This document shows, one piece after another, positions 8,735 through 39,538 of a stretch of 64,000 nt of DNA. Location of the stretch: contig CAZJVY010000006.1 of the NCBI GenBank assembly GCA_964549395.1, positions 6,972 through 70,971 on the forward strand. The letters are read 5' to 3'. Origin of the DNA: an uncultured Armatimonadia bacterium (GTDB lineage Bacteria > Armatimonadota > Zipacnadia > Zipacnadales > UBA11051). The notes below the pieces were generated by a model that saw only the letters and a list, made by a program, of their open reading frames with translations, made no database searches and was not told where the DNA came from. Within the stretch, counting starts at the first letter, position 1. Each line of letters starts with the position of its first letter. The translations under genes were made by a program, and so were the position numbers.

Positions 8735-8992
8735 ATGCGCCGGATCGCGTCAGACATCTACTGGGGCCTGTACGGCCTTGCTCACTACGTGCAGTTCCTC
8801 GTTCTCGCAGCACTGGTGTTGCTGCCGGTTGCGGCGTTCACCGTAACGACAATGCACATCGGCGCCCCCATGCTGCATGTGCCACTGCTGGTCGCAGCCG
8901 GCCATTTCTTGGTCCTGGGGCTGTTGGGTTACGGCATATACTACCTGCCCGCGCAGCTCGAGAGTAGAGTCGCTTCTCCCGAGGATGAATAG
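8735..8992 (+). CDS. small 2-TM membrane protein of unknown function
   Basis: ATG 3 nt after the gspE stop with a GGGAGTGAGG RBS. Two hydrophobic helices. Confidence 0.4.
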   Translation: MRRIASDIYWGLYGLAHYVQFLVLAALVLLPVAAFTVTTMHIGAPMLHVPLLVAAGHFLVLGLLGYGIYYLPAQLESRVASPEDE

Positions 8993-8994
8993 CA

Positions 8995-13446: not shown

Positions 13447-13599
13447 TGCTGTTCTCTTGCAGATGGACAAACGCCGGCCGCTCGCGTGGCCGGCGTTTGC
13501 GTTTGGTGTTTTCCCAATCGTGGAGGCCAAGGCCGCTTGGCCGGCGAAATTGAGCCATCGCGGAAGTCCGATGTACCAGCCGCAGAAGGGGGCAGTCAC

Positions 13600-17270: not shown

Positions 17271-18494
17271 CTACATCAAGTCAAGGCAGGCCATGGCTTG
17301 CTTGTTGCGGACGATCAGCTTGCCGTTCGCGATGACCGGTGCCGTCCAACTCTGGCCGCCGAGCGGCTTGATGCGTCCCAGCTCCTGATAGCCGTCGGTT
17401 GACGCATTGACCATTACGACATCTCCCTGCTTGTCGTCCATAACGATCAGCACACCGTCAACTGCGACGAGGCCACCTTTCTGGAAGCCGGCTTGCCTCC
17501 ACATCACCTTCGGATCTCTCGTGTTCAGGCAGACCAGATGCCCCGAATCGCCCGTGCCGTAGACAAAGCGGTTGTAGAACACCGGCGAGCTGAAGTGGGA
17601 GACGATGAACTTCTCGGCCCAGTACTGGTCCGGGCCCTGGGGCGTTATCTCGAATAGTGCGCAGCCGTGATTGTAGCCGCTGGTGATGAAGACGAAGTTG
17701 CCGACCACGATCGGCATCGCGGCGTTCACGTCGTAGTTCGTCTGCCAGGGAACGCTCCACAGCAGCTTGCCATGGGCCGCATCAACGCCGATGAGCGACG
17801 TTGCCATGAATGCCACGTACTGCTTGCGGTCCAATATTGTGGCCACCACCGGCGTGGAGTACCCTGAGCCGTCGCTGCCGCCGCCCGTCCAAATCGTTTC
17901 TCCCGTAGCCTTGTTGAGAACGGCCACGGCCGCATTGGAGCCGCCCGGCAGGATTACCAGCCTGTCACCGTCAACCACCGGCGACCATGCGTAGTCCCAC
18001 TTCGGCCGCTTGCCGCCGAATTCGTTCACCATGTTACGGGACCACAGCTTCGTGCCGTTCTCGGCATTCAGACAGTGGAGAAGGCCGAGACGGCTGAGGG
18101 CGTAGATGCGGCCGTCTGAGAATACCGGCGTGGAACGCGCAAACCCGTAGTTGGGCTTATCGGTATCTTGATAGCTGTATCGCCAGACCTCCTTACCATC
18201 TTCTAGATTGAAGGCCTTGACGATGTCCTGGTCCCCCGCATGGTCTGTGATGAAGACCTTACCCCCGGCCACCGACGGACCCGCGAAGCCGTCGTCACCA
18301 AGTGACACGCGCCACAGGACCTGTGGCGGCCTCTGCCCCCAGTTCTTGTTGATCCCCGTGTCCGGAGCCAGGAAGTTGGCCGTCGGCCCGCCGAATTGAG
18401 GCCAGTCGGCCCCGAGAGCATCAAGGGCCGACAGTACCAGAATGGGTATGATGACCAGCTTGACCCCGCGAATCATCGCAACACCCCTGCGCAA
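17271..18494 (-). CDS. secreted PQQ-like / BamB-like beta-propeller repeat protein
   Basis: Signal peptide then DWPQFGG. Repeated ...G-x-V(Y/F)...DG-x-L-x-A-x-D-x-x-TG-x-x-x-W blades. About 370-aa propeller. Confidence 0.7.
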   Translation of the reverse strand: MRRGVAMIRGVKLVIIPILVLSALDALGADWPQFGGPTANFLAPDTGINKNWGQRPPQVLWRVSLGDDGFAGPSVAGGKVFITDHAGDQDIVKAFNLEDGKEVWRYSYQDTDKPNYGFARSTPVFSDGRIYALSRLGLLHCLNAENGTKLWSRNMVNEFGGKRPKWDYAWSPVVDGDRLVILPGGSNAAVAVLNKATGETIWTGGGSDGSGYSTPVVATILDRKQYVAFMATSLIGVDAAHGKLLWSVPWQTNYDVNAAMPIVVGNFVFITSGYNHGCALFEITPQGPDQYWAEKFIVSHFSSPVFYNRFVYGTGDSGHLVCLNTRDPKVMWRQAGFQKGGLVAVDGVLIVMDDKQGDVVMVNASTDGYQELGRIKPLGGQSWTAPVIANGKLIVRNKQAMACLDLM

Positions 18495-18588
18495 TGATGT
18501 TCAGTTTGCCTGCTTCACCGCTGCAACCATCTTCTGCATAGACGACAGAGCGCCCCCTGATGTTGCAGGAGTTTTCACCCCTGCCGCC

Positions 18589-19794
18589 CTAACGCCCGAA
18601 GCAGTATATGGCGCCGTCGGAGCTTCCAATCACAAGCCTGCCGTCGGCAATGGCCGGACTGGCGGCGATCCTGGCGCCGGCGTTGAACTGCCAGACCTTG
18701 TGCCCCGTCGCCAGATCCAGAGCGTACAGCTTGCCGTCATCGCAGCCGAAGAAAACCCTATTGTCGGCAATTATAGGTGAGGAATCCACCTCATCACCGG
18801 CAGTGAAAACCCATCGCGTAGCGCCGGTGCCACGGTGTAACCTGAAGACCGTGTGATTGCGGGACGAGAAGATGACCGCATCGCCGGCCACTGCGGCCGA
18901 TGAATAGCTTGCGCCACGGTTCCTCGTCACCATTACTTTCCAGATGATCCTCCCATCTGCCAGCCGTACCGAGGCATACTCGCCCCCCATGCCCCCGACG
19001 AACACGCAGCCCGAGCCGTAGGCCGGTGAGGCCGCGAAGTTCGGGCCGATGTCGGCGGCGGTCCTCTGCCTGCCGGTGGCCAGGTCAATCATTCGCACCG
19101 CGCCGTCACATCCGGCGATGACTACGGTGTCGGACACAACGCAGGGGGAGCAGTGAACTTGGGCCTCGGACTTGAAGCTCCAGATCTTGCGACCCGTGGC
19201 CGCAGCCAGCTTGTACAGGTAGTTGTCGTAGGACCCGACCAGCACCGCCCCTGGGGCCGCCGTCGCAGATGACATGATCTTGTCACCTGTCCCGAACTTC
19301 CACACCAGCCGCCCGTTGCTGGCGTCAACTGCATAGAACGTTCCGCCCTCATCACCGATGTACACGCTATCTTCGGCCCGGCACGGTGAGGCACTGATCC
19401 TGTCGTCGGCTAGGAACTTCCACTTCAGCGTCCCATCTGTCACGCGCAATGCCAGCAGGGCGTTGGTCATGGTGCCCACGTAGGCGGTGTCGCCCACAAT
19501 CGCCGCAGTCGACTCGATGGACGAGCCTGTCTCATACGTCCACTGCAACCGCAGCGGGACAGACAGACTCTCCGATGTGTATCCCGACATCCGTGGCCCG
19601 CCACGGAACGAGGCCCAATCCATCGCCGGGGCAGCAATCGCCGCACCGCCGAGCGCCAGGAACAGGGCCAGCACCCCGATCTTACACACCACACGCACGC
19701 TGGACTGTCGTGTCTTCACATACAACGGCCCTACTCCTGCCTGAGAGCCGCGACGAGATTCCCTCGCACGGCGCTGTGTACGGCAATGGCGCAA
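18589..19794 (-). CDS. secreted PQQ-like / BamB-like beta-propeller repeat protein
   Basis: Signal peptide IGVLALFLALGGAAIAAPA then DWASFRGG. Repeated propeller blades. The true start is probably the GTG at 19719, because the Arg-rich N-terminus of the long ORF overlaps the upstream gene. Confidence 0.7.
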   Translation of the reverse strand: MRHCRTQRRARESRRGSQAGVGPLYVKTRQSSVRVVCKIGVLALFLALGGAAIAAPAMDWASFRGGPRMSGYTSESLSVPLRLQWTYETGSSIESTAAIVGDTAYVGTMTNALLALRVTDGTLKWKFLADDRISASPCRAEDSVYIGDEGGTFYAVDASNGRLVWKFGTGDKIMSSATAAPGAVLVGSYDNYLYKLAAATGRKIWSFKSEAQVHCSPCVVSDTVVIAGCDGAVRMIDLATGRQRTAADIGPNFAASPAYGSGCVFVGGMGGEYASVRLADGRIIWKVMVTRNRGASYSSAAVAGDAVIFSSRNHTVFRLHRGTGATRWVFTAGDEVDSSPIIADNRVFFGCDDGKLYALDLATGHKVWQFNAGARIAASPAIADGRLVIGSSDGAIYCFGR

Positions 19795-22700
19795 CTTACT
19801 AACCCGAATAGTAGTATACCCAGCAACACCCCGCTCAGAACATGCCAGTTCACGTGAGCCTGTGCCGACGCCAGGTGCGGCGCAACAGCGAGCAGTGCCA
19901 TGCCCGTACCCAGGAGCAATCCGGCCACCAGCAGGCCGCCGTTCTCCAGCAGCAGTACGCGAACCACTTTCGGGCGGTGGAAGCCCACTGCCAGCATCAG
20001 CGCCAGCTCCGACCTGCGCTCCAGAGCACTGCGCAGCAGCACGGTCACAAGGCCGGCAGTACCCAGCAACAGACCGAGGCCGCCCAGAGCCAGGAACATG
20101 GACAGATACGTGTTCTGTACCCCAATGAACTCGTTGAGTACCTCCCGTGTGGTTCGCACCCGCACTCCCATGTCTCCCAGATTCGTGCGCAGGATTGCGG
20201 CGATGTTGTCCTCACGCCCCGGCGGGACATCAAGCAGGAAGTAGCTTGGAGCACTCACCGACGGGAAGAGCGTGTGGAAACTGTCCTCGGATACCAGGAC
20301 CTCCCGCTGGAAGATGCTCCCTGGAAGCACTCCCACGAATCGCAGACTGACGGGCCTCAAGGTATCCGTCGGGATCTGATACGTCTTGCCCAGCCCCGAA
20401 TGCAGTGTCCACTGCACGCTGGCTGCGTCGCCGAAAGCCGGAATGGTGTCATCCGCTGCAGGCTGCTCCAGGAGGCTCCAGGGCTGGTCGGCGAAGCTGT
20501 CGCTCACAGTGCCCGGTGAGAAACCACCGCGTTGTATCATGGTGTGGGGGACGCCAAGGATGCGCGGGTGACTGGGGCGCGCGATGTTCAGGCAACTGAT
20601 GTCCTCTCCCTGGCTTGCCAGGAAAGACACGACCTTGACATCCGCGAAAGCCGCTTCGTCATCAGCCGAGAAGCCCAGGTTGCTCCGTCCTGCCGGCGTG
20701 CCCAGGTCGAAGGACAATGGGACCGATGAGGTGGCCTGCAGTTCGAAGCCTCCGGTGCCGGAACTCCGGTCCGTGGGGTCCATCCGCGAGAAATCGCGGG
20801 AATTGGCGGCGACGGCCACGATGACGAAGGTGGCGGCGGCGAGCAGGCCTATCACCAGCAGACTGCGGCTTGCGCTTGCCGCGGCGTTCCGTGCCGAGAA
20901 AGCCGGCAAGGAGCGGGTAGCACCCCTCAGGCGCAGTGTGCGGGACAGCAGCAGAGCGGATGCCGCCAGTGCTGCCAGCAGGAGTGCGAAGCCGATTCCG
21001 AAGAAAGCCACCTGCGGCGCGAGCACTCCCACAACCGCTAGCAGGCCCAGAGCAGGCGCTGCAGTCAATGTCAATATGAGTAGGAACACCACCCGTCTGC
21101 TGCTTGGTCGCACCACAGATACGGCCATTCCACGCCACCCGCCAAGGAGTTCCAGAACCTCCAGACGACCGAGGTGCCGTGCACTCCAAAACGTAGTGAG
21201 CAGCCCGATAACCAGACCTGAGACGGCGCCGGTAACGATGCTGCCAGCCGTCACGTGCAGCCACAGGGATGGAGCCGCACCCAGAGCCCCGCTCCACCAG
21301 CTAGTGAGGGCGTGTATGATGCCGGCCGCATACAGCAGCCCTGCCGGGACCCCGGCCGCCATCCCCAGCACGGTCAGGATTGCACCTTCGGCGAAGATTG
21401 CTCTCTTGACGAGAGCAGGGGGCACGCCGGTGGCCAACATGATCCCGACCTGTGACGCCCGCCGGTCAATTGAGAGGCGCAGCAGCATTCCCCCGAGACC
21501 GGCACCGGATAGCACCAGGAACATGCTCAGGCCCAGGAGAAGCTGGCCGAAATCCGAGGTGCCCTGTGCCGCCCTCAGCGCCAGCTTACGCACCGGACGG
21601 AAGACAAGCCCTTCAGCAGGCGGGGGCGTGCGTTTCATCAGCATCTTGGTGAACAGCTTGCCGAACTTGCCCAGTGTGGTATCCGGCGGTGGCACCATGC
21701 GGATTGAGGTCACCCAGTCGGCTTCGGATCCCTGCGGGCCGCTCTGCCACATCGCGCGTGCCGTATCGGGGCTTACAAAGCCTCTGGGAGTTGCCCTGTA
21801 CCTGTCCCAGTACTCCTCATCGCGGTCGGTGATGCGGCTGAAATCCACCGGGAATGGCGGGTCCCATTCGCCGATGCGAGCCGCATCGGTAATGCCCTCG
21901 AAGTCGGGCACCAGGGTGGGATCGGCGGCCGGCCCCGCCATCTCCACTATGCCCGTTACGGTGAGCTCCGTGTGCGCGGTCGGGTATGTGCCATCCTCCG
22001 TCGGGACCATGTATGTCAGGCGCAGGCGGTCGCCTACTGCGGCCTGGAGGTCTTCAGCCGCCCACGTATTGAGCCAGATGCCGCCCGGCTGCGGCCGCTT
22101 GCCGCTCCCGGCGCGCAATGTGAACGGCTGCAGCGGCTTCAGGCCTGCGATCATCGCATAGGCCGACTCCCTGCCACCGACTCCGTCAGCCCTGGTGATG
22201 GCCGTCGCCAGATAGACTGAAGCAGGAGTACTGCGTGCGTCGCAGCCGGCAGCCGCGCGGATTGCCGACTCGACCTGTCCTTCGGAAAGCAGGATGCCGT
22301 CGCCTACGAGTGATATGCAGTTGTGTCGAGCGTCGGGAACCAGCTTCAGTCCGAGGTCGGCGAGCGTGCGACCGCCTACTACCGCGTCAATCAGATCCCT
22401 CGCTGCTTCGGGTTGCGCCTCCGGTGCCACTGACGCGACGAGGACATTCATGGAATCTTGTTTGCCGAGGCGGTCGGCGAGCCACTGCCTGCCAATGAAT
22501 ACATTGCGCGGCGCTGCACTTTGGGCGTCCAGGCGGAAGTCACCCGCTCCTCCTGCAGGCAATATGTACTCGACCTGCACCCTCATCATCGGTGCAACGT
22601 GCTGTTTGTCGCGGCGGGCAAAGAGCGTTTCAGTTGATATCGCGCTCCGCTTGTGCACGGTCAGGAGAAGATAGTCGCCTTCGCGCAGACTGAGATCCCT

Positions 22701-23126
22701 GGCGAGGGCGGCGTTGACGGCACAGGCCCGACCGGAGAGCTCGGGCGTCTGGGGGAGATCGTAGAAGCTCCAGAAGCTGTCCTCTACGCCCCACACACTC
22801 ACATCGGGGACCGTGGCCTCCGTAGCGGGGTTGCGTGCCGCGCCGTTTGATGTGAGTAGAGCGGACAGGTTGCGAATGGACGCCGCTGCCGGTTGCGCGC
22901 GTATGTCATCCGCGAACTGCCGGCGGAGGTACCGGGGTGCCGTCATAGCATAGTCAATCCTACCGAGTCGCGCCAGAGCCGTATCGCGCAGGCTGCCACG
23001 CACCGAATCGCCGATGAGTAGCGAGCCGGTGATGACCGCAGTGGCCACACCGAGCCCGAAGACGACCACAATGCCTGTCTGCCAGTAGTACGCAAGGCTG
23101 CGGGAGATGAGGCTTCTCAGATTCAC
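19731..23126 (-). CDS. ABC transporter permease, MacB/FtsX-like with duplicated FtsX domains and large extracytoplasmic domains
   Basis: 1131 aa with multiple TM clusters. Translationally coupled to the upstream ABC ATPase gene. Confidence 0.65.
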   Translation of the reverse strand: MNLRSLISRSLAYYWQTGIVVVFGLGVATAVITGSLLIGDSVRGSLRDTALARLGRIDYAMTAPRYLRRQFADDIRAQPAAASIRNLSALLTSNGAARNPATEATVPDVSVWGVEDSFWSFYDLPQTPELSGRACAVNAALARDLSLREGDYLLLTVHKRSAISTETLFARRDKQHVAPMMRVQVEYILPAGGAGDFRLDAQSAAPRNVFIGRQWLADRLGKQDSMNVLVASVAPEAQPEAARDLIDAVVGGRTLADLGLKLVPDARHNCISLVGDGILLSEGQVESAIRAAAGCDARSTPASVYLATAITRADGVGGRESAYAMIAGLKPLQPFTLRAGSGKRPQPGGIWLNTWAAEDLQAAVGDRLRLTYMVPTEDGTYPTAHTELTVTGIVEMAGPAADPTLVPDFEGITDAARIGEWDPPFPVDFSRITDRDEEYWDRYRATPRGFVSPDTARAMWQSGPQGSEADWVTSIRMVPPPDTTLGKFGKLFTKMLMKRTPPPAEGLVFRPVRKLALRAAQGTSDFGQLLLGLSMFLVLSGAGLGGMLLRLSIDRRASQVGIMLATGVPPALVKRAIFAEGAILTVLGMAAGVPAGLLYAAGIIHALTSWWSGALGAAPSLWLHVTAGSIVTGAVSGLVIGLLTTFWSARHLGRLEVLELLGGWRGMAVSVVRPSSRRVVFLLILTLTAAPALGLLAVVGVLAPQVAFFGIGFALLLAALAASALLLSRTLRLRGATRSLPAFSARNAAASASRSLLVIGLLAAATFVIVAVAANSRDFSRMDPTDRSSGTGGFELQATSSVPLSFDLGTPAGRSNLGFSADDEAAFADVKVVSFLASQGEDISCLNIARPSHPRILGVPHTMIQRGGFSPGTVSDSFADQPWSLLEQPAADDTIPAFGDAASVQWTLHSGLGKTYQIPTDTLRPVSLRFVGVLPGSIFQREVLVSEDSFHTLFPSVSAPSYFLLDVPPGREDNIAAILRTNLGDMGVRVRTTREVLNEFIGVQNTYLSMFLALGGLGLLLGTAGLVTVLLRSALERRSELALMLAVGFHRPKVVRVLLLENGGLLVAGLLLGTGMALLAVAPHLASAQAHVNWHVLSGVLLGILLFGLVSCAIAVHSAVRGNLVAALRQE

Positions 23127-23839
23127 TGCCGTCCGACCTCTGTCTCTGCGGTATCCACGGGTGCAAGGCTGCCGTCACGCAGTTGCAGGCAGCGGCCGAA
23201 CCGCGACGCCTGCTCCAGGTTGTGGGTGACCATCAGCACTGTAACGCCCTGCTGCTCGGCCAGCTCCAGCAGCAGAGACACGACCGTCTGCCCGGTGTGG
23301 CGGTCGAGGTTGCCCGTCGGTTCATCACACAACAGCAGGTGGGCATCGTTTATCAACGCTCTGGCGACGGCAACTCTCTGGCGCTCCCCTCCCGAAAGCT
23401 GTGCGGGGAAGGCGTCTTGCCGGTCTGCAAGGCCGACGCGCTCGATCAGCCGCGTGGCCCTCGCATCGGCCTCCTTGCCTCCGGCATTCGCCAGCGTGGG
23501 CAGCAACACGTTCTCAACGGCCGTCAACTGGGGCAGCAGATGATGATCCTGGAAGACAAACCCCACTTGCGATGCGCGGAATGAAGCCAGTGCCTTGCCG
23601 TGCAGAGCGGTTACCTCGGTGTCACCGAGGCGTACCCGTCCTGATGTCGGTTTGTCCAGTGCTCCGGTAATGTTGAGTAGCGTGCTCTTGCCTGAACCTG
23701 AGGGCCCCACGACGGCCACGGTCTCACCAACACTGATCTGGCAGGAAACACCGTCCAGCACCGTGAGATCCGGCCCTCCCGCAATCGGGAACCGTTTCGT
23801 GATTTCCTGCAGAACGAGACCCTCTGCCGGACCTGTCAT
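23123..23839 (-). CDS. ABC transporter ATP-binding protein (LolD/MacB-type)
   Basis: Walker A GPSGSGKST, signature LSGGERQRVAVARAL, Walker B LLLCDEPTGNLD. Start placed at MTGPAEG (23839). Confidence 0.85.
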   Translation of the reverse strand: MTGPAEGLVLQEITKRFPIAGGPDLTVLDGVSCQISVGETVAVVGPSGSGKSTLLNITGALDKPTSGRVRLGDTEVTALHGKALASFRASQVGFVFQDHHLLPQLTAVENVLLPTLANAGGKEADARATRLIERVGLADRQDAFPAQLSGGERQRVAVARALINDAHLLLCDEPTGNLDRHTGQTVVSLLLELAEQQGVTVLMVTHNLEQASRFGRCLQLRDGSLAPVDTAETEVGRQ

Positions 23840-25407
23840 AGTAGCTCCTTGCGCAGGGCGAGTGCGGCCGTGGGGCAGGCCTCGGCACATTCGCGGGCCA
23901 CCTTCTCCAGCCCTGCTGCCAGTGTTTCGTTGAACGGTACTCCCACCACTATGTCGAATCCCCTGCCAACGAATGTGAGGCCCAGTCGCTCACGGGCGCT
24001 TTCTGCAATCTGCACGCACAGGCCGCAGGCGATACACTTGCCCGGCTCGTACACCAGGATGGGGTGAGTTGTCTCGCGCTGGAACGTCCGCCGGCCTTCC
24101 TTGTAGCGGGTAACGCTGGCATCGTAGGCGGTTGCCCACTTGCGCAGCTTACAGTCATCCTGCCCTACGCAATCGCAGTGCAGACAGCGCCTTGCCTCGT
24201 GTCCCGCTTCAGCATCGGAGAAGCCTGCTTGCTCGCCGCCAACGGGCGCAACCCGGTCATGCTCGGGAATGCCGGACGCAAACGCGCGCAATTCGTGCTC
24301 CTCTAACCGCCCAATGTGGACGGTATAGGGCCGCCCTGCGCCCCTGGCCTCCTCACCGGCCAGATAGCGGCAGATGGCAACTGCCGCCGACCTGCCGCTG
24401 CCAACAGCGCGCACGGCGTGCCGCGAAGGCGACAGCGCCGAGCCCGCCGCGAACACCTCCGGCGTCTCGGCCATGTGCGAATTGCGGTCAGCCTGCAGGC
24501 CTCTGCCGGACATGCTCAGGCCCAGGTCACCTGCAGCATCCCGCGACATCTCACCCGTTGCTACCAGAATGGCATCGGATTCCCCGCGCAGATCGTCTAT
24601 CGAGACATGCCGACCGACATGGACGCCGGTGCGGAGCTCCGCACCTAGTTGCAGAACGCGCTCTATCTCCGCGCCAAGGACATCGCGCGGCAGGACGTCC
24701 TCGGGAACGCCGTAGCGCAGCATGCCGCCCGGCTCCTCGTGGTCGTCAATGATCGTGCAGCCGTGTCCTGCCTGCATCAAGTAGTATGCAGCCGTGAGAC
24801 CCGCCGGACCGGCGCCGATTATGCCCACGTGCTTGCCGGTCGGCGGGCGGCACTCCGGCCGGTAGGGCTGTGCCGCAGCCAGATCCCAGTCGCCCACGTA
24901 CCGCTTCACCAGGCGTATGCCGACCGGACTATCCAGGTCTCCGCGCCGGCAGCCCTTCTCGCACAGCTCCGGACAGATCCGCCCCAAGGTAGCGGGAAAG
25001 GGAATGTGCTGCTTCACGGTCGCAGCTGCCTCCGCGATGCGCCCTGCGGCAACGAGTCTCAGCATCCTCGGGATGTCCATGTGTGCAGGGCAGATGCTTT
25101 GACAGGGACCTATGCAGTCACCCAGGTGATTCCCCAGCAGCAGCTCCAGCGCGTTGCGTCGTGCCGCCTTGACCTTTTCGCTCTCGCTTTCCACCACCAT
25201 GCCGTCGGTGGCCTCCGTGGCGCAGGCCGGCACCAGCCGCTCAGCCCCGTTCACTCTCACCACACATACCATGCAGGATGTCGGCGGCTTGCAGCCTTGC
25301 ACAAAGCACAGCGTGGGTATCTCGATGCCTAGCTTCCGGGCCGCGTCCAGAACGGTCGCACCCGCTTCGACTTCTACCTCCCGGCCATCTATGGTAAGCT
25401 TCGGCAT
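23836..25407 (-). CDS. FeS-flavoprotein: NuoG-N-terminal-type [2Fe-2S]/[4Fe-4S] domains fused to a GltD-like FAD/NAD(P)-binding domain plus C-terminal ferredoxin (StnA-like)
   Basis: MPKLTIDGREVEV...TLCF [2Fe-2S] start. HLGDCIGPCQSICP His-ligated cluster motif. GIIGAGPAGLTAAYYL dinucleotide fold. C-terminal CIACGLCVQIA. Confidence 0.65.
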   Translation of the reverse strand: MPKLTIDGREVEVEAGATVLDAARKLGIEIPTLCFVQGCKPPTSCMVCVVRVNGAERLVPACATEATDGMVVESESEKVKAARRNALELLLGNHLGDCIGPCQSICPAHMDIPRMLRLVAAGRIAEAAATVKQHIPFPATLGRICPELCEKGCRRGDLDSPVGIRLVKRYVGDWDLAAAQPYRPECRPPTGKHVGIIGAGPAGLTAAYYLMQAGHGCTIIDDHEEPGGMLRYGVPEDVLPRDVLGAEIERVLQLGAELRTGVHVGRHVSIDDLRGESDAILVATGEMSRDAAGDLGLSMSGRGLQADRNSHMAETPEVFAAGSALSPSRHAVRAVGSGRSAAVAICRYLAGEEARGAGRPYTVHIGRLEEHELRAFASGIPEHDRVAPVGGEQAGFSDAEAGHEARRCLHCDCVGQDDCKLRKWATAYDASVTRYKEGRRTFQRETTHPILVYEPGKCIACGLCVQIAESARERLGLTFVGRGFDIVVGVPFNETLAAGLEKVARECAEACPTAALALRKELL

Positions 25408-25410
25408 AGG

Positions 25411-27900
25411 CTATTCAACCATTACCGCATCAACCGGACAGACCTGCCGGCAGGTGTCGCAGCGGATGCACTTCTCGGCATCAATTTCGTGTTGCTGGTA
25501 CGGTTCCATTGCGATGGCCTGCGCCGGGCAGTGCTGGGCACACCTGGTGCAGCCGATGCACTTATCGGTGATGCGATAGGTGATGAGCGCCCGGCATCTC
25601 CCGGCCGGACATCTGCCCTCCAGATGCGCCTCGTACTCATCCCGGAAATAGCGCAGCGTCGTGAGAACGGGGTTCGGCGCGGTCTGACCGAGGCCGCACA
25701 AGCTCGTCGTCTTGACCATCAGCGCCAGTTCTTCCAGCTTCTCGAGGTCGTCCTGTTTGCCCTGGCCGGTGCAGATCCTCTCCATGATGTCCAGCATCCT
25801 GCGCGTGCCCACTCGACAGGGGGTGCACTTGCCGCACGATTCCCGCTGCGTGAACTCCAGGAAGTAGCGGGCGACATCGAGCATGCAGTCGCTGTCATCG
25901 AGGACCACTAGCCCGCCGGATCCCATGATGGCGCCGGCACCCACCAGTTCCTCATAGTCAACAGGCATGCCGGCCAGCTCGGCGGGTATGCAACCGCCGG
26001 AGGGGCCGCCGATCTGCACCGCCTTGAAGCGGCGGCCCTCACCGACACCTCCGCCGATCCGCTCCACAATCTCGCGGATCGTGATGCCCATAGGCACCTC
26101 GATGAGGCCGCCTCGCTTCACTTTTCCCGTTAGGGAGAAGACCTTCGTGCCCTTGCTGTGTCGGGTGCCGAATTCGGTAAATGCCTCCGGGCCGTTGCGG
26201 ATGATGAATGGCACCAGGGCGAGGGTCTCCACGTTATTCACGCATGTGGGGCGGCCCCACAAGCCGCTCTGAGCGGGGTAGGGAGGACGCAGATGTGGGC
26301 TGCCCCGGCGGCCCTCTATCGAGGCTATCAGCCCGGTCTCCTCCCCGCAAACGAACGCCCCCGCACCCTCCATGATGCTCAGACGAAGCCCGAAGTCGCT
26401 GCCGAAGGGATCATCCCCCAGCAGCCCCTGCTCCTCGCATATCTGGATCGCTTCCCATACCCGCCTTACAGCCAGGGCGTACTCGGTTCGTATGTACAGC
26501 AGGCCCTCGCGCGCTCCCACGGCATAGGCCGCGATTGCCATGCCCTCCAGCACCCGGAACGGATACGACTCCAGCAGCATCCGGTCCATGAAGGCCCCGG
26601 GATCGCCCTCGTCCCCGTTGCAGATGATGTACTTCACGTCTCCGGGCGCATCAGCCACCGCTCGCCACTTGGGGCCGGTCGGGAAGCCTGCCCCACCACG
26701 TCCGCGCAGGCCGGATGCGGCCACAGTCTCGATCACCTGGTCCCGCGTCAACTCCGATACGCACGTGCGCAGCGCCTCAAAGCCGTTGTGGTGAAGATAC
26801 TCCCCGATGTCCAGTGGGCCGGCCGTGCCGTGCAGTTCTGTAGCAATGTGCTTCTGCGCGTTCAGAAATGCCGACACGCTGTCGCCGTGTACATCCAGTG
26901 CCTGGCGCGTCACCGGCTTCCAGGACTGGTCGGTGAGAATCTGTTCGAGCGCCTGGTCAACCGTTGTCCTTATCTTGCGAAGCAGCCCGCGCGGCCGGAA
27001 GTGGTGGCGAATGACGGCCTCCGCATCCTCAGGCTGGACGCGTGCATAGAGTGCGGGCGCCTCTCCAGGCACCAGCACCTCGACAAGCGGCGTCTGATGG
27101 CACATGCCCACACATCCGACCGGCTTGACCACGGCCGGCGCTCCCAGTGCGTCCAGCGCCTCCTGCATCGCGACTAGCACATCCATGCTGCCACTGGCAA
27201 TGCAGCACGAGCCCACGCCGATGCGGACTTCCGCCACGCCCTCTGCCGGCGCGTCTGCTGATGCCGGGTGGCGCTCCAGGGCGCCGCGCCGCCGCAGTTC
27301 CAGAAAGTCCGTGACCATCTGCGGGACGCCGTCTGGCGTCAGATGGCCGTATGTCACGCCGTCAATCTGGACCACTGGCGCAAGAGTGCAGCAACCCAGG
27401 CAGTCCACCCGCTGAACGGTGAACAGGCCGTCCTGCGTCGTGTCGGCTCCCTCGTCGAGGCCGAGGTGTCTGCTCAGCGCCTCGCTTATCAGAGACGCGC
27501 CCTTGACGTGGCAGGCCGTGCCGTGGCACACGCTGATCAGATGCCGGCCGACGGGACTGTGCCGGAAGCGCGAATAGAAAGTGGAAACGCCGGTGATGGC
27601 CGCGGGGGTAATCTCCGTAATCTCACAGACGCGGCGCAGGGCTTCCTGCGGCAAGTAGCGATAGTGACCTTGCAGGGCCTGGAGAATGGGGATGACGGCG
27701 TCCAGCTCGCGCCCCAGTTCCTCGACGATCTCATCAACGAAGTCCAGATCGAGCGCTTCCTCGTCAGGGGGTGCATTATCATCGCATGGTACGGGGGCGC
27801 TGTCGAAACCGGCAGGGGCTGAGGTGGACGTATCCGAACACTCGGTAGTCCCTTCAACTGTGTAGCCGTCTGATGCCTCTGGTGGCACGCTTCCATTCAT
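25411..27900 (-). CDS. NuoE-like [2Fe-2S] thioredoxin-like domain fused to NuoF-like FMN/NADH-binding 51-kDa domain with two C-terminal [4Fe-4S] ferredoxin motifs (HydB/StnC/FdhB-like)
   Basis: CHGTAC...CLGCC NuoE motif. Second thioredoxin-like SCCIASGS...GCVGMC. GRGGAGFPTG...CNGDEGDPGAF NuoF signature. SCGKCTPCRVG cluster. CIGCTRCAQHCP and CIRCDTCRQVCP. Confidence 0.75.
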   Translation of the reverse strand: MNGSVPPEASDGYTVEGTTECSDTSTSAPAGFDSAPVPCDDNAPPDEEALDLDFVDEIVEELGRELDAVIPILQALQGHYRYLPQEALRRVCEITEITPAAITGVSTFYSRFRHSPVGRHLISVCHGTACHVKGASLISEALSRHLGLDEGADTTQDGLFTVQRVDCLGCCTLAPVVQIDGVTYGHLTPDGVPQMVTDFLELRRRGALERHPASADAPAEGVAEVRIGVGSCCIASGSMDVLVAMQEALDALGAPAVVKPVGCVGMCHQTPLVEVLVPGEAPALYARVQPEDAEAVIRHHFRPRGLLRKIRTTVDQALEQILTDQSWKPVTRQALDVHGDSVSAFLNAQKHIATELHGTAGPLDIGEYLHHNGFEALRTCVSELTRDQVIETVAASGLRGRGGAGFPTGPKWRAVADAPGDVKYIICNGDEGDPGAFMDRMLLESYPFRVLEGMAIAAYAVGAREGLLYIRTEYALAVRRVWEAIQICEEQGLLGDDPFGSDFGLRLSIMEGAGAFVCGEETGLIASIEGRRGSPHLRPPYPAQSGLWGRPTCVNNVETLALVPFIIRNGPEAFTEFGTRHSKGTKVFSLTGKVKRGGLIEVPMGITIREIVERIGGGVGEGRRFKAVQIGGPSGGCIPAELAGMPVDYEELVGAGAIMGSGGLVVLDDSDCMLDVARYFLEFTQRESCGKCTPCRVGTRRMLDIMERICTGQGKQDDLEKLEELALMVKTTSLCGLGQTAPNPVLTTLRYFRDEYEAHLEGRCPAGRCRALITYRITDKCIGCTRCAQHCPAQAIAMEPYQQHEIDAEKCIRCDTCRQVCPVDAVMVE

Positions 27901-29915
27901 TCGCTGGTTGCTCGGCTGCCTATGCAGTAGAGATGCTTCTCGCCCCGGATGTAGATCCTGCCGTCCACGTAGGCGGGCGTAGCGCGTATCGCCTCAGTGA
28001 TTTTGCCCGTAGAGACGGCCTTGAACTTGCGCGCGGCCTCGAAGATGTGCATGACCCCGCGCGTGTCGGCGATGTAAACATGCTCGCCCACCACGGTCGG
28101 AGACGACACCAAAGACGCCTTCAAGTCCTGCTGCCACAGCTTCTTGCCGTCCTTTGCGTCATAGCACGTAATCAGGCCGTAGCTGGCCGCCACAAACACC
28201 AGCTCACCGTTGCTGACCGGACTGGTGGTATCCGGCAGTCCCTCGCTGGCCGACCAGACTACCTCACCTTTGGTGCCCTTGCCCGGCGCCGGAGGGCGAA
28301 TGGCGAACAGGCCGGCACTCTCGCTACAGGCGAACACCAAGCCGCCCGCATAGCATGGCGTCGAAGCGATATCGCCGCTCAGACATTCGGCGCGCCAGAG
28401 CTCCTCGCCAGTGGCAGCATTGTAGGAGATGACCCAGGGGTCGGCGCTGGTGATGATCTCGTCGCGCTCGGCGGTGTTGACGACAATCGGGCTGGCCCAC
28501 GAGTTGGGGACCGGCCGCTTCGTCCGCCACACGGCCTTCCCATCGCCGGCATCGAGCGCAATCAGCGCCGACAGGCCATCTGCTGCGCTATATCCCTGAT
28601 CGAGCTGTATGATGACAATGTTGCGGTACGTCGCCAGCGAAGACGCATGACCGTACACGTTGTCCGGAGTGCCCAACGTCTTCGCCCACACCTGCTTGCC
28701 TTCCAGATCGAAAGCCGCCACGTCGCCGTTGGCGAATATCGCGAAGACTCGTTGCCCGTCGCACGCCATCGTAGGAGCGGCGAAGCCCGTATCTTCCGAG
28801 ACCTCGGGCGCCTCGTCGTTGGCACTCGCATCAATCAACACCTGGTGTTTCCAGGCCATTTCGCCCGTGTTTGCATCAATGCAGTACACGCCACGGCGCT
28901 TCTCATCGGCGCCGGTCACAAACACTTTCCCATCCCAGAAGGCGGGGGAGCTGTGGCCGGGCAGGGGTATGTCCGCCTTCCACAGCACCCCTTCGCTCTT
29001 GGCACCATCCCAGCGCGTCGGATACCCGCCCGCAGCGATGATGCCTGATGCGGACCCCCGAAATGACGGCCAGTTCCTGGCGCGTTCTTCTGCCGTCGGG
29101 TATGTCCCCTCCAGGTCCGCAGTGCCGCCGGCGGCAGGCGACTGGTCGCCCTTGGGCGGCTTATCCTTCTTCTCGGGCGCCGGCTTCTCGGCAGGTGGAC
29201 TAGGGGGCCCCGGCTCCCCGCGAGGGCCACGGGGACCCGAAATGCCTGCGGGCCCGGGAGGTCCTGGAGGACCCGGAACCGCAGCCGGCGGCGCAGCCTC
29301 GGGGGCCGGTGGTTGCTGCGTCTCTTCCTCAGGAGGCCTGGTGCCGTCGAGTGGCTTCTCACCCGTGTCGGATGCCGCCGCCAGACGTGCAGCCTTGACG
29401 TATTCCGAGGATGCATCATGCCGGGCGAGGACGGCTACAGTAAGAAGGACCCCCGCCATGACAATGCCCAGGATGGCAACCGACCGCCGTGCCAGAGCGG
29501 CCTCAACCCAGAACTCCCGAGCGCGCGAGGGCTGCGGCGCTGGGGCCTTGGCCCGGAATCGCGCAACCACGTGCAGGGATGCCAGCAACACGGCCAGACC
29601 TCCCAGCAGCAGATAGACGCCGGTGATGGCCCGTGCCCGGGTGGTGAAGTACGTGCTGCGTATGTATTCATCCAGTGCACGGATATGCTGCCTGAGCTGG
29701 TCGTTATCCGGCTGCCTGGCCAGCTCCGCCTTAAGCGCATCTATCCGCGCCGGCTGCAAGGGGTCGGCCGCCCGCCCCTGCGCCAGGTTTGCCACCAGCA
29801 AACCGAGCACCACCAGGCAGAAAACGAACGCCAGTGCCGCAGTTGCCAGCGCAGCCTGGTAGTAAAGGTTGTGGCGAGCGATTTCCTCGGCTTCCCCGAG
29901 CGGCTCTTCGCTCAT
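27897..29915 (-). CDS. membrane-anchored (3 TM) PQQ/BamB-like beta-propeller protein with collagen-like GXY linker
   Basis: Three N-terminal hydrophobic helices. GPPGPPGPAGISGPRGPRGEPGPP. NWPSFRGSASG then propeller blades. Confidence 0.65.
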   Translation of the reverse strand: MSEEPLGEAEEIARHNLYYQAALATAALAFVFCLVVLGLLVANLAQGRAADPLQPARIDALKAELARQPDNDQLRQHIRALDEYIRSTYFTTRARAITGVYLLLGGLAVLLASLHVVARFRAKAPAPQPSRAREFWVEAALARRSVAILGIVMAGVLLTVAVLARHDASSEYVKAARLAAASDTGEKPLDGTRPPEEETQQPPAPEAAPPAAVPGPPGPPGPAGISGPRGPRGEPGPPSPPAEKPAPEKKDKPPKGDQSPAAGGTADLEGTYPTAEERARNWPSFRGSASGIIAAGGYPTRWDGAKSEGVLWKADIPLPGHSSPAFWDGKVFVTGADEKRRGVYCIDANTGEMAWKHQVLIDASANDEAPEVSEDTGFAAPTMACDGQRVFAIFANGDVAAFDLEGKQVWAKTLGTPDNVYGHASSLATYRNIVIIQLDQGYSAADGLSALIALDAGDGKAVWRTKRPVPNSWASPIVVNTAERDEIITSADPWVISYNAATGEELWRAECLSGDIASTPCYAGGLVFACSESAGLFAIRPPAPGKGTKGEVVWSASEGLPDTTSPVSNGELVFVAASYGLITCYDAKDGKKLWQQDLKASLVSSPTVVGEHVYIADTRGVMHIFEAARKFKAVSTGKITEAIRATPAYVDGRIYIRGEKHLYCIGSRATSE
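29205..29276 (-). repeat. collagen-like Gly-X-Y triplet repeat (8 triplets) within CDS 27897-29915
   Basis: GPP GPP GPA GIS GPR GPR GEP GPP read directly from the translation (aa 214-237). Confidence 0.8.
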
Positions 29916-31222: not shown

Positions 31223-31798
31223 CTATTCCTTGGTTCGCAGCAGATACGGCTTGTTTGCCGGCACGCGAACGATGGCATCCGATGGGCATACGTTCGCGAT
31301 GGCGCACTGATTGCAGTTGATGCAGCGGTCATGCCGAATCTGCAGGATGAGCGAGCCGTTCCCGTAATCCCGGCACCCCTTCACGCAGGCTCCGCAGCCG
31401 ATGCACTTGGACTCGTCTATCACGTACTGGTAATAGGGATCCTCAATGAAGCTGCGGCTGATCGCATTGGTGGGGCATCGCTGGTTCTCGGCGCCTTCGG
31501 TGTCATCCGCGCGCTTCTCGGCTAGATAGCCGAAGCAGAGGTCGCAGTACCCGCACATTGCGTACTCGTGCACGCACTTGACTGCCGAGGGGTTCAACAC
31601 ACATGCCGTGGCGCACTTCCCGCATTGCGTGCATTTGGCGGGGTCCACCTGCCACACGTACTCATTGGCGTTCCCCCGAGACACCAGCGCCCCGAGCAAC
31701 CCACCGGTGAACAGCAGACCGGCGCCTCGCGCGGCCTGGGTCAGGAACTCGCGCCGGGTCATCGTCTCGCGCTCGTCTGTGGAAGGCTCTAGGGACAT
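31223..31798 (-). CDS. Tat-exported NapG/MauM-like ferredoxin with four [4Fe-4S] motifs
   Basis: Twin-arginine motif TRREFL. CTQCGKCATAC, CGYCDLC...CP, CIGCGACVKGC, CINCNQCAIANVCP. Confidence 0.7.
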   Translation of the reverse strand: MSLEPSTDERETMTRREFLTQAARGAGLLFTGGLLGALVSRGNANEYVWQVDPAKCTQCGKCATACVLNPSAVKCVHEYAMCGYCDLCFGYLAEKRADDTEGAENQRCPTNAISRSFIEDPYYQYVIDESKCIGCGACVKGCRDYGNGSLILQIRHDRCINCNQCAIANVCPSDAIVRVPANKPYLLRTKE

Positions 31799-32019
31799 TG
31801 CTCTCCTTCGCTTGCGCCAGCCCGTTTCGCCGATAGTGCCTGCGGCAGATGGCAGGCCTCAAAAGCGCCACAACCCCGGCAGATGCCCTGGTTGATGCAT
31901 TCTTCGCTGTTGCGGGTCATCAGCGCGCCGACGCCGCCGCCCAACAGCAACGCAACGCCATACCTGCCGATATCGCGCAGGAATTCACGCCTGGTCATTC
32001 TGCCCGGCTTCTCCAGCAT
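31789..32019 (-). CDS. tiny Tat-signal Cys-rich periplasmic protein (mature part about 40 aa, 6 Cys)
   Basis: MTRREFL Tat motif then CINQGICRGCGAFEACH...EQCP. Overlaps the next gene start by 10 nt. Confidence 0.45.
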   Translation of the reverse strand: MLEKPGRMTRREFLRDIGRYGVALLLGGGVGALMTRNSEECINQGICRGCGAFEACHLPQALSAKRAGASEGEQCP

Positions 32020-32045: not shown

Positions 32046-33062
32046 CTACTTTCGGGCAAACACCTTCACGGTACCCGCCGCCGGGTCCATCACGTAAATG
32101 CGCCCCTCACCGTCCACGGCCAGATCCAGGCCCGCCGCTTTCGGCGAGAAATCGTCCGGCACGGCGACTACACTCTCGAGCGTGCCGTCGCGGTTATGTA
32201 CCTTCACGCGCGGCAGGCCCTTCTCGCTGGTGACTATCCTGCCGTCCGCCAAAACCGCGATATCAGTGGGGTTACAGCAGCCGCAGAAGCCGTCAATCTC
32301 CTGTGATGGCTTGCCCCATGTTGACTTGAGAGTCCCATCCGCCGCGTATGTCCCGACCGCGTGGCGGCCGGGATTGTTGACGATGAGCGTCTGCTCCGGC
32401 CCCAAGGCCACATCGAGATGCGGACTGGGCAGCAGCAGGCCCGGCACACCCTTGCCCTCATCCTTCTCGCCGATCCTGCCCAGCAAGTCGCCGGACTTGC
32501 TGTAGTGCAATACGACGCGGTTTCCGGCATCCCCGACCCAGACATCCTCACCTGAGACAACCAGGCTGGTCAGGTAGGCGTTCTCACCCGGCAGTGTCCA
32601 GCCGGCCTGCACATTGCCCTTGGTGTCGTATGCGACTATCCCCGTGCGCAGGCCGATCCACTCAGTCTCGTCTTCGCCCAGCGCAATTGCGTACGGCGGC
32701 TCAGGCAGTTGACGCTGATAGTTGCAGTGGCCCTGTGCATCGAACACGCGGAGGCCGCTGTCGCCGACCGCATAGAGACTTGCCGCCTCACCGAATGTCA
32801 CCGCGATCCCGCGCGGCTCGTCAAAGCCGGTCGCGATTTGGCTGACTTGCTGGTACTTGACGAGCGCCGGGTCAACCTGCCGCAGTGCGCTCATGTCATC
32901 ATTCGACTGCCGCACGGCGCTTTCGGTATGAGAGCGGATTTCGGAGCGGCTGAGTTCGTAGCAGCCACTGACGGCCACTAGCAGCGATAGAAGAGCGACA
33001 CGCCCAGGCTTCAGGGCCGGGCCGGACTTACTGGCGAGTTGTGAGCCGGTACGCCTGCTCAT
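32046..33062 (-). CDS. NHL-repeat (6-bladed beta-propeller) lipoprotein
   Basis: Lipobox LLVAVSGC. Repeated DG-x-x-Y/V-x-D blades with a CGCCNPTD motif. Confidence 0.5.
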   Translation of the reverse strand: MSRRTGSQLASKSGPALKPGRVALLSLLVAVSGCYELSRSEIRSHTESAVRQSNDDMSALRQVDPALVKYQQVSQIATGFDEPRGIAVTFGEAASLYAVGDSGLRVFDAQGHCNYQRQLPEPPYAIALGEDETEWIGLRTGIVAYDTKGNVQAGWTLPGENAYLTSLVVSGEDVWVGDAGNRVVLHYSKSGDLLGRIGEKDEGKGVPGLLLPSPHLDVALGPEQTLIVNNPGRHAVGTYAADGTLKSTWGKPSQEIDGFCGCCNPTDIAVLADGRIVTSEKGLPRVKVHNRDGTLESVVAVPDDFSPKAAGLDLAVDGEGRIYVMDPAAGTVKVFARK

Positions 33063-34638: not shown

Positions 34639-34884
34639 TTGTGCCCCACAATGCAGGGCAGCCCCGTTGGCTGACTGCCCTCGAGTTGGCTACTGTGTAC
34701 AGATATGCTATGCAATGTCTGCCATGGTGTCAAGCTCAAGGCACCTTGGCGGCCCTTCAGTCGGAAGCTACCCTCCCCTCTTAGGCAAGAAGGTGCGCCA
34801 GATAGGTCTCTAAGGGGGGCCCACTGGGTCAAATGACGCCCCATTTACCGCCCAGGTTCACACCCTTAACGGCTCAAGACGGAT

Positions 34885-34902
34885 ATGTTTCACGTGAAAC
34901 AT
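34885..34902. promoter_or_regulatory. perfect 18-bp palindrome ATGTTTCACGTGAAACAT in a divergent intergenic region (candidate operator)
   Basis: The left half is the exact reverse complement of the right half. Sits in an AT-richer stretch and is followed by a TTGAC-like hexamer. Confidence 0.4.
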
Positions 34903-35057
34903 TTATTGACCGAACCGCTGCAAGCAGCCTATCAACCGCTCACAGAGGAAAGGCAGGCCCCAAAGGCGAAGAAATGCGCGAACGTAAGCGACGGAACACG
35001 GGGCGGTGGCGAAGTCTGAAGAATGCCTCAACGGATCGTTCGGAGAGCGAAGAACCC

Positions 35058-39307: not shown

Positions 39308-39538
39308 ATGAGTCATAGAGCAAGCCCAGAGATGCCTACAAGATGGGTGCGATGATGGAGATCTGGCGGACTGGCACGCACCTGCAGTCAGACCGTCGCA
39401 TCCAGCGCAATTGACACCGCGGCCGGACAGGTTGTCCGTGGGCAGTTGTTGAACATGGGGCAGGGGACGTGCTACCCTAGTATGAGGACGGCCAATAGTA
39501 GCCGTGAGCATACCGTTGAGGGAGTATAACTTGAGATT

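Follow-up and report, generated by a model that had tools for sequence, protein, structure and literature searches.

What can a pair of flavin/iron-sulfur proteins of the electron-bifurcating kind be doing when neither of them carries a catalytic hydrogenase or formate dehydrogenase domain? The question is raised by a 64,000-nucleotide stretch of DNA from an uncultured Armatimonadia bacterium (GenBank assembly GCA_964549395.1, contig CAZJVY010000006.1, positions 6,972 to 70,971), here called the window; all coordinates are positions in this 64-kb window, on the minus strand unless stated otherwise. Two adjacent genes encode an 829-residue protein, BfuCB, and a 523-residue protein, short BfuA. 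A preliminary description made from the sequence had proposed that they form a fused Stn-type NADH/NADPH/ferredoxin transhydrogenase, with NADP(H) bound by a GltD-like domain of the 523-residue protein, and that neither the pair nor its flanks encode an H-cluster or molybdopterin subunit. The latter holds: in a Pfam profile scan, neither the two proteins nor any other sizeable open reading frame (ORF) of the window showed an H-cluster, molybdopterin, or NiFe-hydrogenase domain. Bfu-type enzymes are the most recently recognized class of electron-bifurcating enzymes. Here, we report that the pair is predicted to be an NADH-linked, and probably ferredoxin-linked, iron-sulfur flavoprotein, and we consider it rather probable that it is a Bfu-type flavin/iron-sulfur module descended from an Nfn/Stn transhydrogenase that now serves as the cytoplasmic electron head of an envelope redox system.

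BfuCB is a fusion of NuoE-like and NuoF-like parts (Table 1). Pfam and alignment to BfuB chains give the domain order that the preliminary description had read, i.e., NuoE-like, thioredoxin-like, NuoF, and twice ferredoxin, and residues 224 to 829 can be aligned over their full length to B subunits of bifurcating enzymes with known structures: 9bov_B (Csac NfnB, 706.5 bits), 9n5u_B (Thermococcus sibiricus NfnB, 696.8 bits), 7t2r_B (NiFe-HydB, 673.2 bits), and 8oh5_B (StnB, 672.4 bits). Conservation was scored over 66 related loci that carry the fusion (≥760 amino acids). The predicted ligands of the C1 cluster (C125, C130, C167, C171) and of B1 (C689, C692, C695, C735), the Bfu-type bridge/Zn motif B2 (H759, C764, C769), and the eight cysteines of B3/B4 are all 100% conserved; B5 is the only variable site, with C233 and C263 invariant and C232 and C267 about 75% conserved. 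In solved Bfu enzymes, B5 holds either a [2Fe-2S] cluster or Zn, the latter in Csac NfnB (PMC11829005). In the NuoF part, Pfam places Complex1_51K at residues 393 to 564 (E 1.9e-42) and NADH_4Fe-4S at residues 675 to 759 (E 2.6e-36). The B3/B4 domain aligns to the C-terminal domain of 9bov_B, 9n5u_B, and 7t2r_B. In Bfu enzymes, this C-terminal 2×[4Fe-4S] domain is the ferredoxin-interacting one.

We considered affiliation with respiratory complex I and rejected it on the scores of the NuoF core and of the NuoE part. The NuoF core alone (412 residues) scores 461 to 597 bits against all nine Bfu-type B chains and far less against the non-bifurcating homologues: 383 for FdsB, 377 for Nqo1, 337 to 352 for NuoF, and about 287 bits for mitochondrial 51-kDa subunits. 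The NuoE part finds its best PDB matches in 9bov_C, 9n5u_C, and 8oh5_A (NfnC and StnA; HydC is also among them) at 141 to 145 bits versus at most about 98 bits for complex I. TIGR01959 scores 463.9 on BfuCB, under its cut-off of 558.65, and no nuo genes occur in the window. On these scores, the NuoF domain does not side with respiratory complex I; such a placement, or an H-cluster or molybdopterin domain, is what the preliminary description had named as fatal to its proposal. All the features of a Bfu BC core that can be read from a sequence are present in the 829-residue protein, which does not group with complex I, and we take it, as a prediction, to be the NADH/FMN (flavin mononucleotide) and ferredoxin-interacting core.

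Even so, the pair might be a plain, non-bifurcating NADH dehydrogenase head, NuoEFG-like, that feeds the NapH/ferredoxin relay encoded in the same operon, with the Bfu ferredoxin domain acting as a wire or being vestigial. If the acceptor at the membrane or in the periplasm is of high potential, as it may be, then coupling to ferredoxin would be unnecessary; many of the host lineages, such as Pirellulales and Chthonomonadales, are described as aerobes, which also counts for this alternative, and so does the partial conservation of two of the four B5 cysteines. Set against these are the complete conservation of the B3/B4 cysteines, the bridge motif, and the C1 and B1 ligands, the much closer match of the NuoF core to proven bifurcating enzymes, and the finding that non-bifurcating homologues are without the extra Bfu clusters (PMC9304861). 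We regard a plain dehydrogenase head as unlikely, though it deserves serious attention.

The more unusual partner is BfuA. It derives from NfnA/StnC and is predicted to hold one [2Fe-2S] cluster, four [4Fe-4S] clusters, and a flavin adenine dinucleotide (FAD)-binding domain. The predicted ligands of its N-terminal [2Fe-2S] cluster A1 (C34, C45, C48, C62) are invariant in both a 48-sequence and a 122-sequence set. The GltD/NfnL-type domain offers C98, C102, C106, C145, C149, and C153, together with H94 and E150, as candidate ligands, and its cysteine pattern is the same in 9bov_A and 8oh5_C. The FAD-binding half of the GltD/NfnL fold follows with the motifs G198xG200xxG203, D221, G227-G228, A283xG285, and F319xxG322; the GxGxxG, the acidic residue, the GG, and the ATG-type motifs are conserved, and the position of the aspartate in the GD motif is S323 here. 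Of the NuoG-type clusters, C408, C411, C413, and C419 are the predicted ligands of one and C458, C461, C464, and C511 those of the other, while the second cluster of the ferredoxin fold is lost: A468 stands where motif 1 should have its fourth cysteine, and motif 2 keeps C507 and C511 only. The HydA-type N-terminal iron-sulfur domains that had been assigned to this protein are there (Fer2_4 and Fer4_20, with the NuoG/HydA-type motifs later, at residues 408 to 511). The published Stn subunits are A for the NuoE-like, B for the NuoF-like, and C for the GltD/NuoG-like protein (PMC10482914), so that the StnC/StnB and StnA lettering of the preliminary description was swapped.

What the 523-residue protein does not have is the NAD(P)H half of the GltD-like domain that the preliminary description had attributed to it; Pfam, the PDB alignments, and the MAFFT alignment all leave the FAD-binding half alone. 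The best PDB matches of BfuA are 9bov_A (NfnA, 1178 amino acids), 8oh5_C (StnC, 1172), and 9n5u_A (963), and it aligns to NfnA/StnC in two pieces, query residues 3 to 301 on chain residues 5 to 302 and query residues 274 to 516 on chain residues 423 to 671. Against NfnB (4ylf_B), query residues 100 to 301 match residues 45 to 250 and query residues 295 to 352 match residues 404 to 462; the 4ylf_B segment that is skipped holds the second Rossmann motif of NfnB, GKKVAVIGAGNTAMDAA. The MAFFT alignment with longer relatives has a gap of about 150 columns between E286 and M287 (near nucleotides 24549/24550), and there the longer relatives P0138, P0154, and P0242 carry VVVGGGN(E/T)A(L/M)DAARTA (VVVGGGNTAMDAARTA) and the remaining NAD(P)H subdomain. 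The spacing from the ATG motif to the GD motif is 50 residues in BfuA versus 155 to 225 in longer relatives. Pyr_redox_2 aligns on BfuA over residues 193 to 225 only, which cover profile positions 2 to 31 of 291, and the Pfam search gave no PF00070 match; in P0154, by contrast, Pyr_redox_2 spans profile positions 2 to 291 and PF00070 matches as well. A count of second Rossmann motifs by regular expression did not discriminate and was discarded.

The AlphaFold2 model of BfuA (predicted local distance difference test score, pLDDT, 93.8; predicted template modeling score, pTM, 0.90) leads to the same picture. Foldseek superposes it on 9bov_A, 8oh5_C, and 9n5u_A with TMq of 0.86 to 0.90 over 680 to 704 alignment columns; as the query has 523 residues, at least about 160 of these columns must be gaps on its side. 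The protein ends near residue ~671 of 9bov_A and 8oh5_C, where the Fdh-like domain of StnC/NfnA starts. Judged from these alignments, BfuA has lost its NAD(P)H-binding subdomain and its Fdh-like C-terminal domain, together with one [4Fe-4S] cluster. As an aside, the family model NF045663 ('diclust_near_Sec', pyridine nucleotide-disulfide oxidoreductase/dicluster-binding protein) aligns BfuA residues 100 to 467 with profile positions 18 to 364 at a score of 164.7, far under its cut-off of 530; this alignment has no room for a 150-residue insertion, so that family, too, may be without the NAD(P)H subdomain.

The deletion is a property of a family. BfuA relatives are encoded in at least 593 GTDB species genomes, and the search gave 2256 representatives of 50%-identity clusters at E ≤ 1e-30. 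The top 120 homologues measure 514 to 584 amino acids, one fragment excepted, and of 148 sequences obtained for the 150 best 50%-identity representatives, 121 measure 495 to 600. The best 80 loci come mainly from Planctomycetota (Pirellulales, Phycisphaerae, Sedimentisphaerales, and others) and Armatimonadota, with a few Poribacteria and single metagenome-assembled genomes (MAGs) of Victivallales, Aminicenantes, and Desulfobacterales; the closest named relatives among the matches listed are Armatimonadia MAGs with 61 to 64% identity. In 122 cluster representatives, with identity down to 38%, the 18 cluster cysteines, the GxGxxG, and the GG, and with them D221, A283xG285, and F319xxG322, are about 98 to 100% conserved, and on this pattern we read the short form as a family under purifying selection. 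An assembly artifact or a pseudogene was considered as the source of the deletion and rejected: the ~520-residue form is the majority form, its ligands are invariant, and the model is confident.

Fifteen representatives of 628 to 723 amino acids keep the inserted subdomain. Four of them (P0138, P0154, P0232, and P0237) have an intact GGGN(T/E)A motif; in the others it has degenerated, e.g., to IAAGSPGTDEAR, IGLDAAAFDAAR, and VGPLETGLDVAE. Locus L088 has the order PQQ_2, NHL, ferredoxin, NapH-like, NuoE (298 amino acids), NuoF (600), and BfuA (709), with NuoE and NuoF unfused and an intact motif, GGGNTAMDAAR; L091 has PQQ_2, a fused BfuCB (801), and a BfuA (675) with a degenerate motif. This series indicates that NADPH binding was dispensable: the system started out with a site for NADPH, put up with the decay of that site, and finally lost it. 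Two fusions of the short form were seen on the side. In P0125 (1133 amino acids), it is joined to a second, complete GltD module (Pyr_redox_2 at 677 to 968, PF00070 at 806 to 879) and two Fer4 motifs, and in P0121 (951 amino acids) to a URO-D-like domain; a URO-D gene also adjoins BfuA in L004.

These observations bear directly on the proposed transhydrogenase. Its ancestry stands, as all three parts are closest to NfnABC/StnABC, and the sister forms P0138, P0154, P0232, and P0237 in the same cluster still keep the nucleotide motif. Its function does not: the ~150-residue NAD(P)H Rossmann subdomain is absent, a single GxGxxG motif remains in the 523-residue protein, and the decayed motifs of several mid-length relatives point to relaxed selection on NADPH binding. 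Because the subdomain with the NADP(H) site is deleted here and throughout the ~520-residue family, a NADH/NADPH transhydrogenase is not supported, and the series from intact over degenerate to deleted is strong evidence against NADP(H) as a substrate of the form in the window. We give this explanation hardly any credence.

If the electrons do not go to NADP+, where do they go? The gene neighborhood offers an answer. We searched 86 loci by tblastn with eleven proteins of the window and scored each gene only in loci whose flank reached far enough (Table 1). With few exceptions, the BfuCB/BfuA pair lies within a conserved cluster of 12 genes, whose gene order is constant and which was seen in Armatimonadota, Planctomycetota, Poribacteria, and others; the ABC/FtsX gene pair lies downstream of BfuA in Armatimonadota, the window included, and upstream of the cluster in Planctomycetota. 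That the pair is co-operonic with membrane electron carriers had been recognized before and proved right, though it is the regular context of the family and not the unusual one that it had been taken for. An envelope link is also supported by topology, i.e., by the twin-arginine translocation (Tat) signal of the ferredoxin, the roughly six to seven helices of the NapH-like protein, the lipobox of the NHL protein, and the membrane anchors of the propellers.

The NapH-like protein (NapH431) belongs to the NapH/NosR/CcoG family and has two CX3CP motifs (C137, C225) and two CxxCxxCxxxCP motifs (C253, C402), whose cysteines are invariant in orthologues; its residues 123 to 266 match TIGR02163 napH. 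The 16 cysteines of the Tat-exported ferredoxin, which is of the NapG type, are 98 to 100% kept in 51 sequences. In the NHL-repeat lipoprotein, the vicinal C262-C263 in the motif GFCGCCNP is invariant in 45 orthologues, and C260 is kept in 76%; this site may be redox-active or metal-binding. In PDB searches, the matches of the NHL lipoprotein were confined to generic NHL repeats of TRIM proteins.

In our preferred reading, the envelope-directed module, NADH would be oxidized at the BC core, probably together with reduced ferredoxin, and the electrons would run along the cluster chain of BfuA instead of to NADP+. From the ligand pattern, this chain would end in an N4-like cluster, with a side branch to the FAD fold that has no nicotinamide site. 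The truncation point shared by short and mid-length forms leaves the N4-like cluster exposed. In complex I, NuoI sits at the matching position. By this analogy, and because NapH431 has weak NuoI-type Fer4 matches, the exposed cluster is the likeliest docking site for NapH. BfuA would then pass electrons to the cytoplasmic [4Fe-4S] clusters of NapH431, NapH431 to the Tat-exported four-cluster ferredoxin, and the ferredoxin to the beta-propeller proteins, membrane-anchored or lipoprotein, that the operon also encodes, with the NHL lipoprotein and its vicinal cysteines as one candidate end point. The retained FAD may be a one-electron/two-electron converter, a docking point or electron exit, or vestigial. 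As a whole, the module would serve a conserved envelope-directed system as its cytoplasmic head for the input (or output) of electrons. Proteins of the NapH, NosR, NirI, and RdhC family are electron-supply partners of periplasmic enzymes.

Several points weigh against the envelope-directed module. Whether the enzyme bifurcates or confurcates, which way the electrons flow, and where they end are all matters of inference. To our knowledge, the transmembrane electron route of NapH-type proteins has not been established. For NapH431, the sequence search of the PDB gave no hit and Foldseek gave nothing below E = 0.36 with its AlphaFold2 model (pLDDT 82.1). The propellers have no CxxCH and no recognizable cofactor motif, and their conserved cysteines mostly look like structural blade positions. 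The GD-motif aspartate is lost across the BfuA family, with G, S, or A instead, and the FAD occupancy is uncertain. No fusion proteins that join parts of the cluster occur in the 86 loci, and in L001 and L004, the short BfuA gene lies apart from the BfuCB and NapH/ferredoxin genes; L001 nonetheless keeps the ABC, FtsX, and propeller genes.

The last two loci would suit a different explanation, that the pair is a soluble enzyme working on its own, with an exposed FAD that reduces a small cytoplasmic acceptor of two electrons (such as a quinone, a disulfide, or O2), and that synteny reflects nothing but co-regulation. The dinucleotide-binding motifs for FAD are kept even though the NADPH subdomain is gone, and the second GltD module of P0125 also fits. 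We think a soluble enzyme very improbable, in that gene order is kept across phyla, the genes are translationally coupled to the NapH-like and propeller genes, and the flavin site itself has not conserved its GD-motif aspartate.

The flow could also be reversed. If periplasmic proteins oxidize a low-potential donor, then the Bfu core would bifurcate the imported electrons to NAD+ and ferredoxin. Bfu enzymes are reversible (PMC9304861), and the cluster is also found in anaerobic lineages, e.g., Sedimentisphaerales and Phycisphaerae. No recognizable periplasmic dehydrogenase cofactor site was found, which makes electron import, to us, an improbable alternative; neither hydrogenase, Fdh, and heme signatures nor a true PQQ-enzyme signature was found.

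Compared with known systems, the best match in sequence and fold is NfnABC/StnABC (Csac, Caldicellulosiruptor saccharolyticus, 9BOV/9BP5; Sporomusa ovata, 8OH5/8OH9; T. sibiricus, 9N5U/9N5V). The BC ligands are the same, and the A subunit has the same [2Fe-2S] domain, a GltD/NfnL insertion that combines two [4Fe-4S] clusters with an FAD Rossmann fold, and NuoG-type clusters. BfuA differs in being without the NAD(P)H subdomain, the GD aspartate, one [4Fe-4S] cluster, and the Fdh/NuoG-like domain, and in having 523 versus 963 to 1178 residues; C and B are fused, and the genes stand in an envelope-related cluster and not in a three-gene operon. The HydABC-type [FeFe]- and [NiFe]-hydrogenases (e.g., 7P5H, 7Q4V, 8A6T, 7T2R) share a homologous BC core (507 to 582 bits over the NuoF core), and the N-terminal iron-sulfur domains of BfuA are HydA-like (NF040763 match), while the window has neither an H-cluster domain nor NiFe subunits. 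Unlike in the NAD-dependent formate dehydrogenases (FdsABG/Fdh-Bfu), there is no match to a molybdopterin family in the window.

With the N-module of complex I (NuoEFG) and with Nuo-Bfu, the pair would share the logic of a path from NADH over FMN and an iron-sulfur chain to a membrane partner, and the N4-like cluster at which truncated BfuA stops is much like the end of the N-terminal domain of NuoG; membrane-bound Nuo-Bfu complexes have been predicted (PMC9304861). It differs from complex I by its distant NuoF core (337 to 377 bits), by the lack of nuo membrane genes, and by a partner from the NapH family and not from the Nuo P-module. The relay itself resembles NapGH, NosGH, NosR, NirI, MauMN, and RdhC, with a Tat-exported four-cluster ferredoxin and a polytopic protein with two CX3CP and two [4Fe-4S] motifs. 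In NapGH-like electron-supply systems, NosZ, NirS, and MauB are periplasmic beta-propeller neighbors, which is a parallel to the propellers of the window. Unlike in those systems, no Nap, Nos, Nir, or Mau catalytic subunit is encoded, and the relay is encoded with a cytoplasmic NADH-dehydrogenase head. The cut-offs of the NapGH families are not reached (TIGR02163, 47.6 bits versus 213; NapG PRK09476, 23 versus 269), and no nap genes, including those for NapAB and NapC, occur at the locus.

The hosts (Planctomycetota, Armatimonadota, and Poribacteria) are abundant and poorly understood, and, as far as we know, no function has been assigned to the other ten cluster genes. In a survey of Bfu enzymes, 17 BfuB clades were left without an assigned third substrate; the third substrates listed are hydrogen peroxide, pyruvate, CO, aldehydes, aryl-CoA thioesters, NADP+, F420, formate, and quinones, a NapGH-type partner is absent from the list, and the supplement has Planctomycetes under Nuo-Bfu only (PMC9304861). 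Word searches of the literature found no description of the cluster or of an NfnA/StnC without the NADPH domain, and we found none of a NapGH-like pair encoded with a cytoplasmic NADH-dehydrogenase head. The locus defines one large unassigned Bfu group, in which the "third substrate" is apparently a membrane/periplasmic iron-sulfur relay and not a soluble molecule. A fuller version can be offered only tentatively, and we would not bet on it as a whole: a new Bfu class with an NADH/ferredoxin confurcating head, made from Nfn/Stn by decay and excision of the NADPH site, hard-wired to a transmembrane NapH/NapG-type relay, and powering, together with a MacB-type ABC machine, reductive chemistry on the periplasmic beta-propeller proteins and on the NHL protein with its vicinal cysteines. 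If this version is true, then a 12-gene envelope redox system spans Planctomycetota, Armatimonadota, Poribacteria, and other groups, with at least 593 species in all. The relatives also provide a natural series of the Nfn-type NADPH site, intact, degenerate, and deleted, which makes testable whether a Bfu core drives electron export to the envelope and what role the FAD-only GltD remnant has.

Table 1. Features of the BfuCB/BfuA locus in the window and their presence in related loci.
Feature	Coordinates	Strand	Evidence	Presence in related loci
Short BfuA, 523 amino acids	23836..25407	-		
BfuA N-terminal [2Fe-2S] domain (A1)	25168..25407	-	Fer2_4 residues 4-76, E 1.9e-18	
BfuA GltD/NfnL-type domain, two [4Fe-4S]	24877..25128	-	Fer4_20 residues 100-177, E 8.8e-20	
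BfuA FAD-binding half of GltD/NfnL fold, residues 190-352	24352..24840	-		
BfuA NuoG/HydA-type clusters, residues 408-511	23860..24201	-	alignment to 9bov_A residues 423-671	
BfuCB, 829 amino acids	25411..27900	-	Pfam, PDB matches	directly upstream of BfuA in 66/68
BfuCB NuoE/BfuC-like thioredoxin-fold [2Fe-2S] domain (C1), residues 56-198	27307..27735	-	PF01257 2Fe-2S_thioredx, E 1.2e-48	
BfuCB, BfuB N-terminal thioredoxin-like domain (B5 site), residues ~224-310	26971..27231	-	residue 224 aligns to BfuB chain residue 2-7	
BfuCB NuoF-type core, residues ~354-766: FMN/NADH site, ubiquitin-like domain, four-helix bundle with [4Fe-4S] B1	25603..26841	-		
BfuCB C-terminal 2×[4Fe-4S] ferredoxin domain (B3/B4), residues 775-826	25423..25578	-	Fer4_21/Fer4_7 matches	
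PQQ524, first gene of operon, 524-amino acid membrane-anchored PQQ_2/BamB-type beta-propeller	33064..34638	-		43/48
Promoter-like, sigma-70-like site upstream of PQQ524 gene	34733..34705			
NHL-repeat lipoprotein, 338 amino acids, lipobox VSGC	32046..33062	-		47/53
76-amino acid small protein, RR motif, hydrophobic helix, Cx5Cx2Cx5C, then LPQALSAK	31789..32019	-	between NHL and ferredoxin genes	
Tat-exported ferredoxin, NapG type, 191 amino acids, TRREFL twin-arginine signal, four cluster motifs	31223..31798	-		48/53
NapH431, NapH/NosR/CcoG-family polytopic membrane protein, 431 amino acids	29912..31207	-	Fer4_5, E 3e-16	49/54
PQQ672, 672 amino acids, three N-terminal hydrophobic helices, Pro/Gly collagen-like linker, PQQ_2 beta-propeller	27897..29915	-		54/59
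MacB/LolD-type ABC ATPase (255 amino acids) and duplicated FtsX-type permease (1131 amino acids)	19731..23890	-		FtsX-like gene, 24/33 loci of ≥18 kb
Two more PQQ_2 beta-propeller proteins, 401 and 407 amino acids, N-terminal anchor or signal sequences	17271..19794	-		

In the ORF list, at least 11 minus-strand ORFs run consecutively from 34638 down to 17271, and a twelfth, small ORF was detected in addition. At most junctions of the run, start and stop codons overlap or lie 1 to 15 nucleotides apart; the overlapping ones are NapH431/PQQ672, PQQ672/BfuCB, and ABC/FtsX, and the gap between BfuCB and BfuA is 3 nucleotides. The small ORF encodes the 76-residue protein, which matched no Pfam family and is kept at the same position in 38 related loci. 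The linker of PQQ672 (residues ~195-245, PGPPGPPGPAGISGPRGPRGEPGPP), which precedes its beta-propeller, gives a weak match to Pfam Collagen. Taken at its longest, the ABC ATPase ORF shares 55 nucleotides (23836-23890) with the end of the 523-residue gene; an internal Met at residue 17 (MTGPAEG...) would cut the overlap to a few bases, and the annotated start is probably too far upstream.

Outside the operon, a divergent plus-strand cluster at 34833-43603 resembles one for hopanoid or polyprenoid synthesis, with genes for a Fer4-domain protein (34833-35912), a radical SAM protein (35913-37427), a squalene-hopene cyclase (37244-39307), a DUF116-polyprenyl synthetase fusion (39539-41299), a prenyltransferase-fold protein (41296-42219), and a GT4 glycosyltransferase (42311-43603). 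On the other side, type II secretion/pilus genes lie within 2703-16749 (T2SS-F at 5962-7167, T2SS-E at 7218-8732, and several N-methyl/DUF1559 pseudopilin-like ORFs at 10620-13446); they have at their flanks two proteins with heparinase II/III-like domains, each about 1000 to 1090 residues long. A glycosyltransferase of the GT4 family, about 430 to 490 residues long, recurs directly 3' of BfuA or near it in L003, L006, L087, and L091, which are from different phyla; the GT4 gene of the window lies about 18 kb from BfuA.

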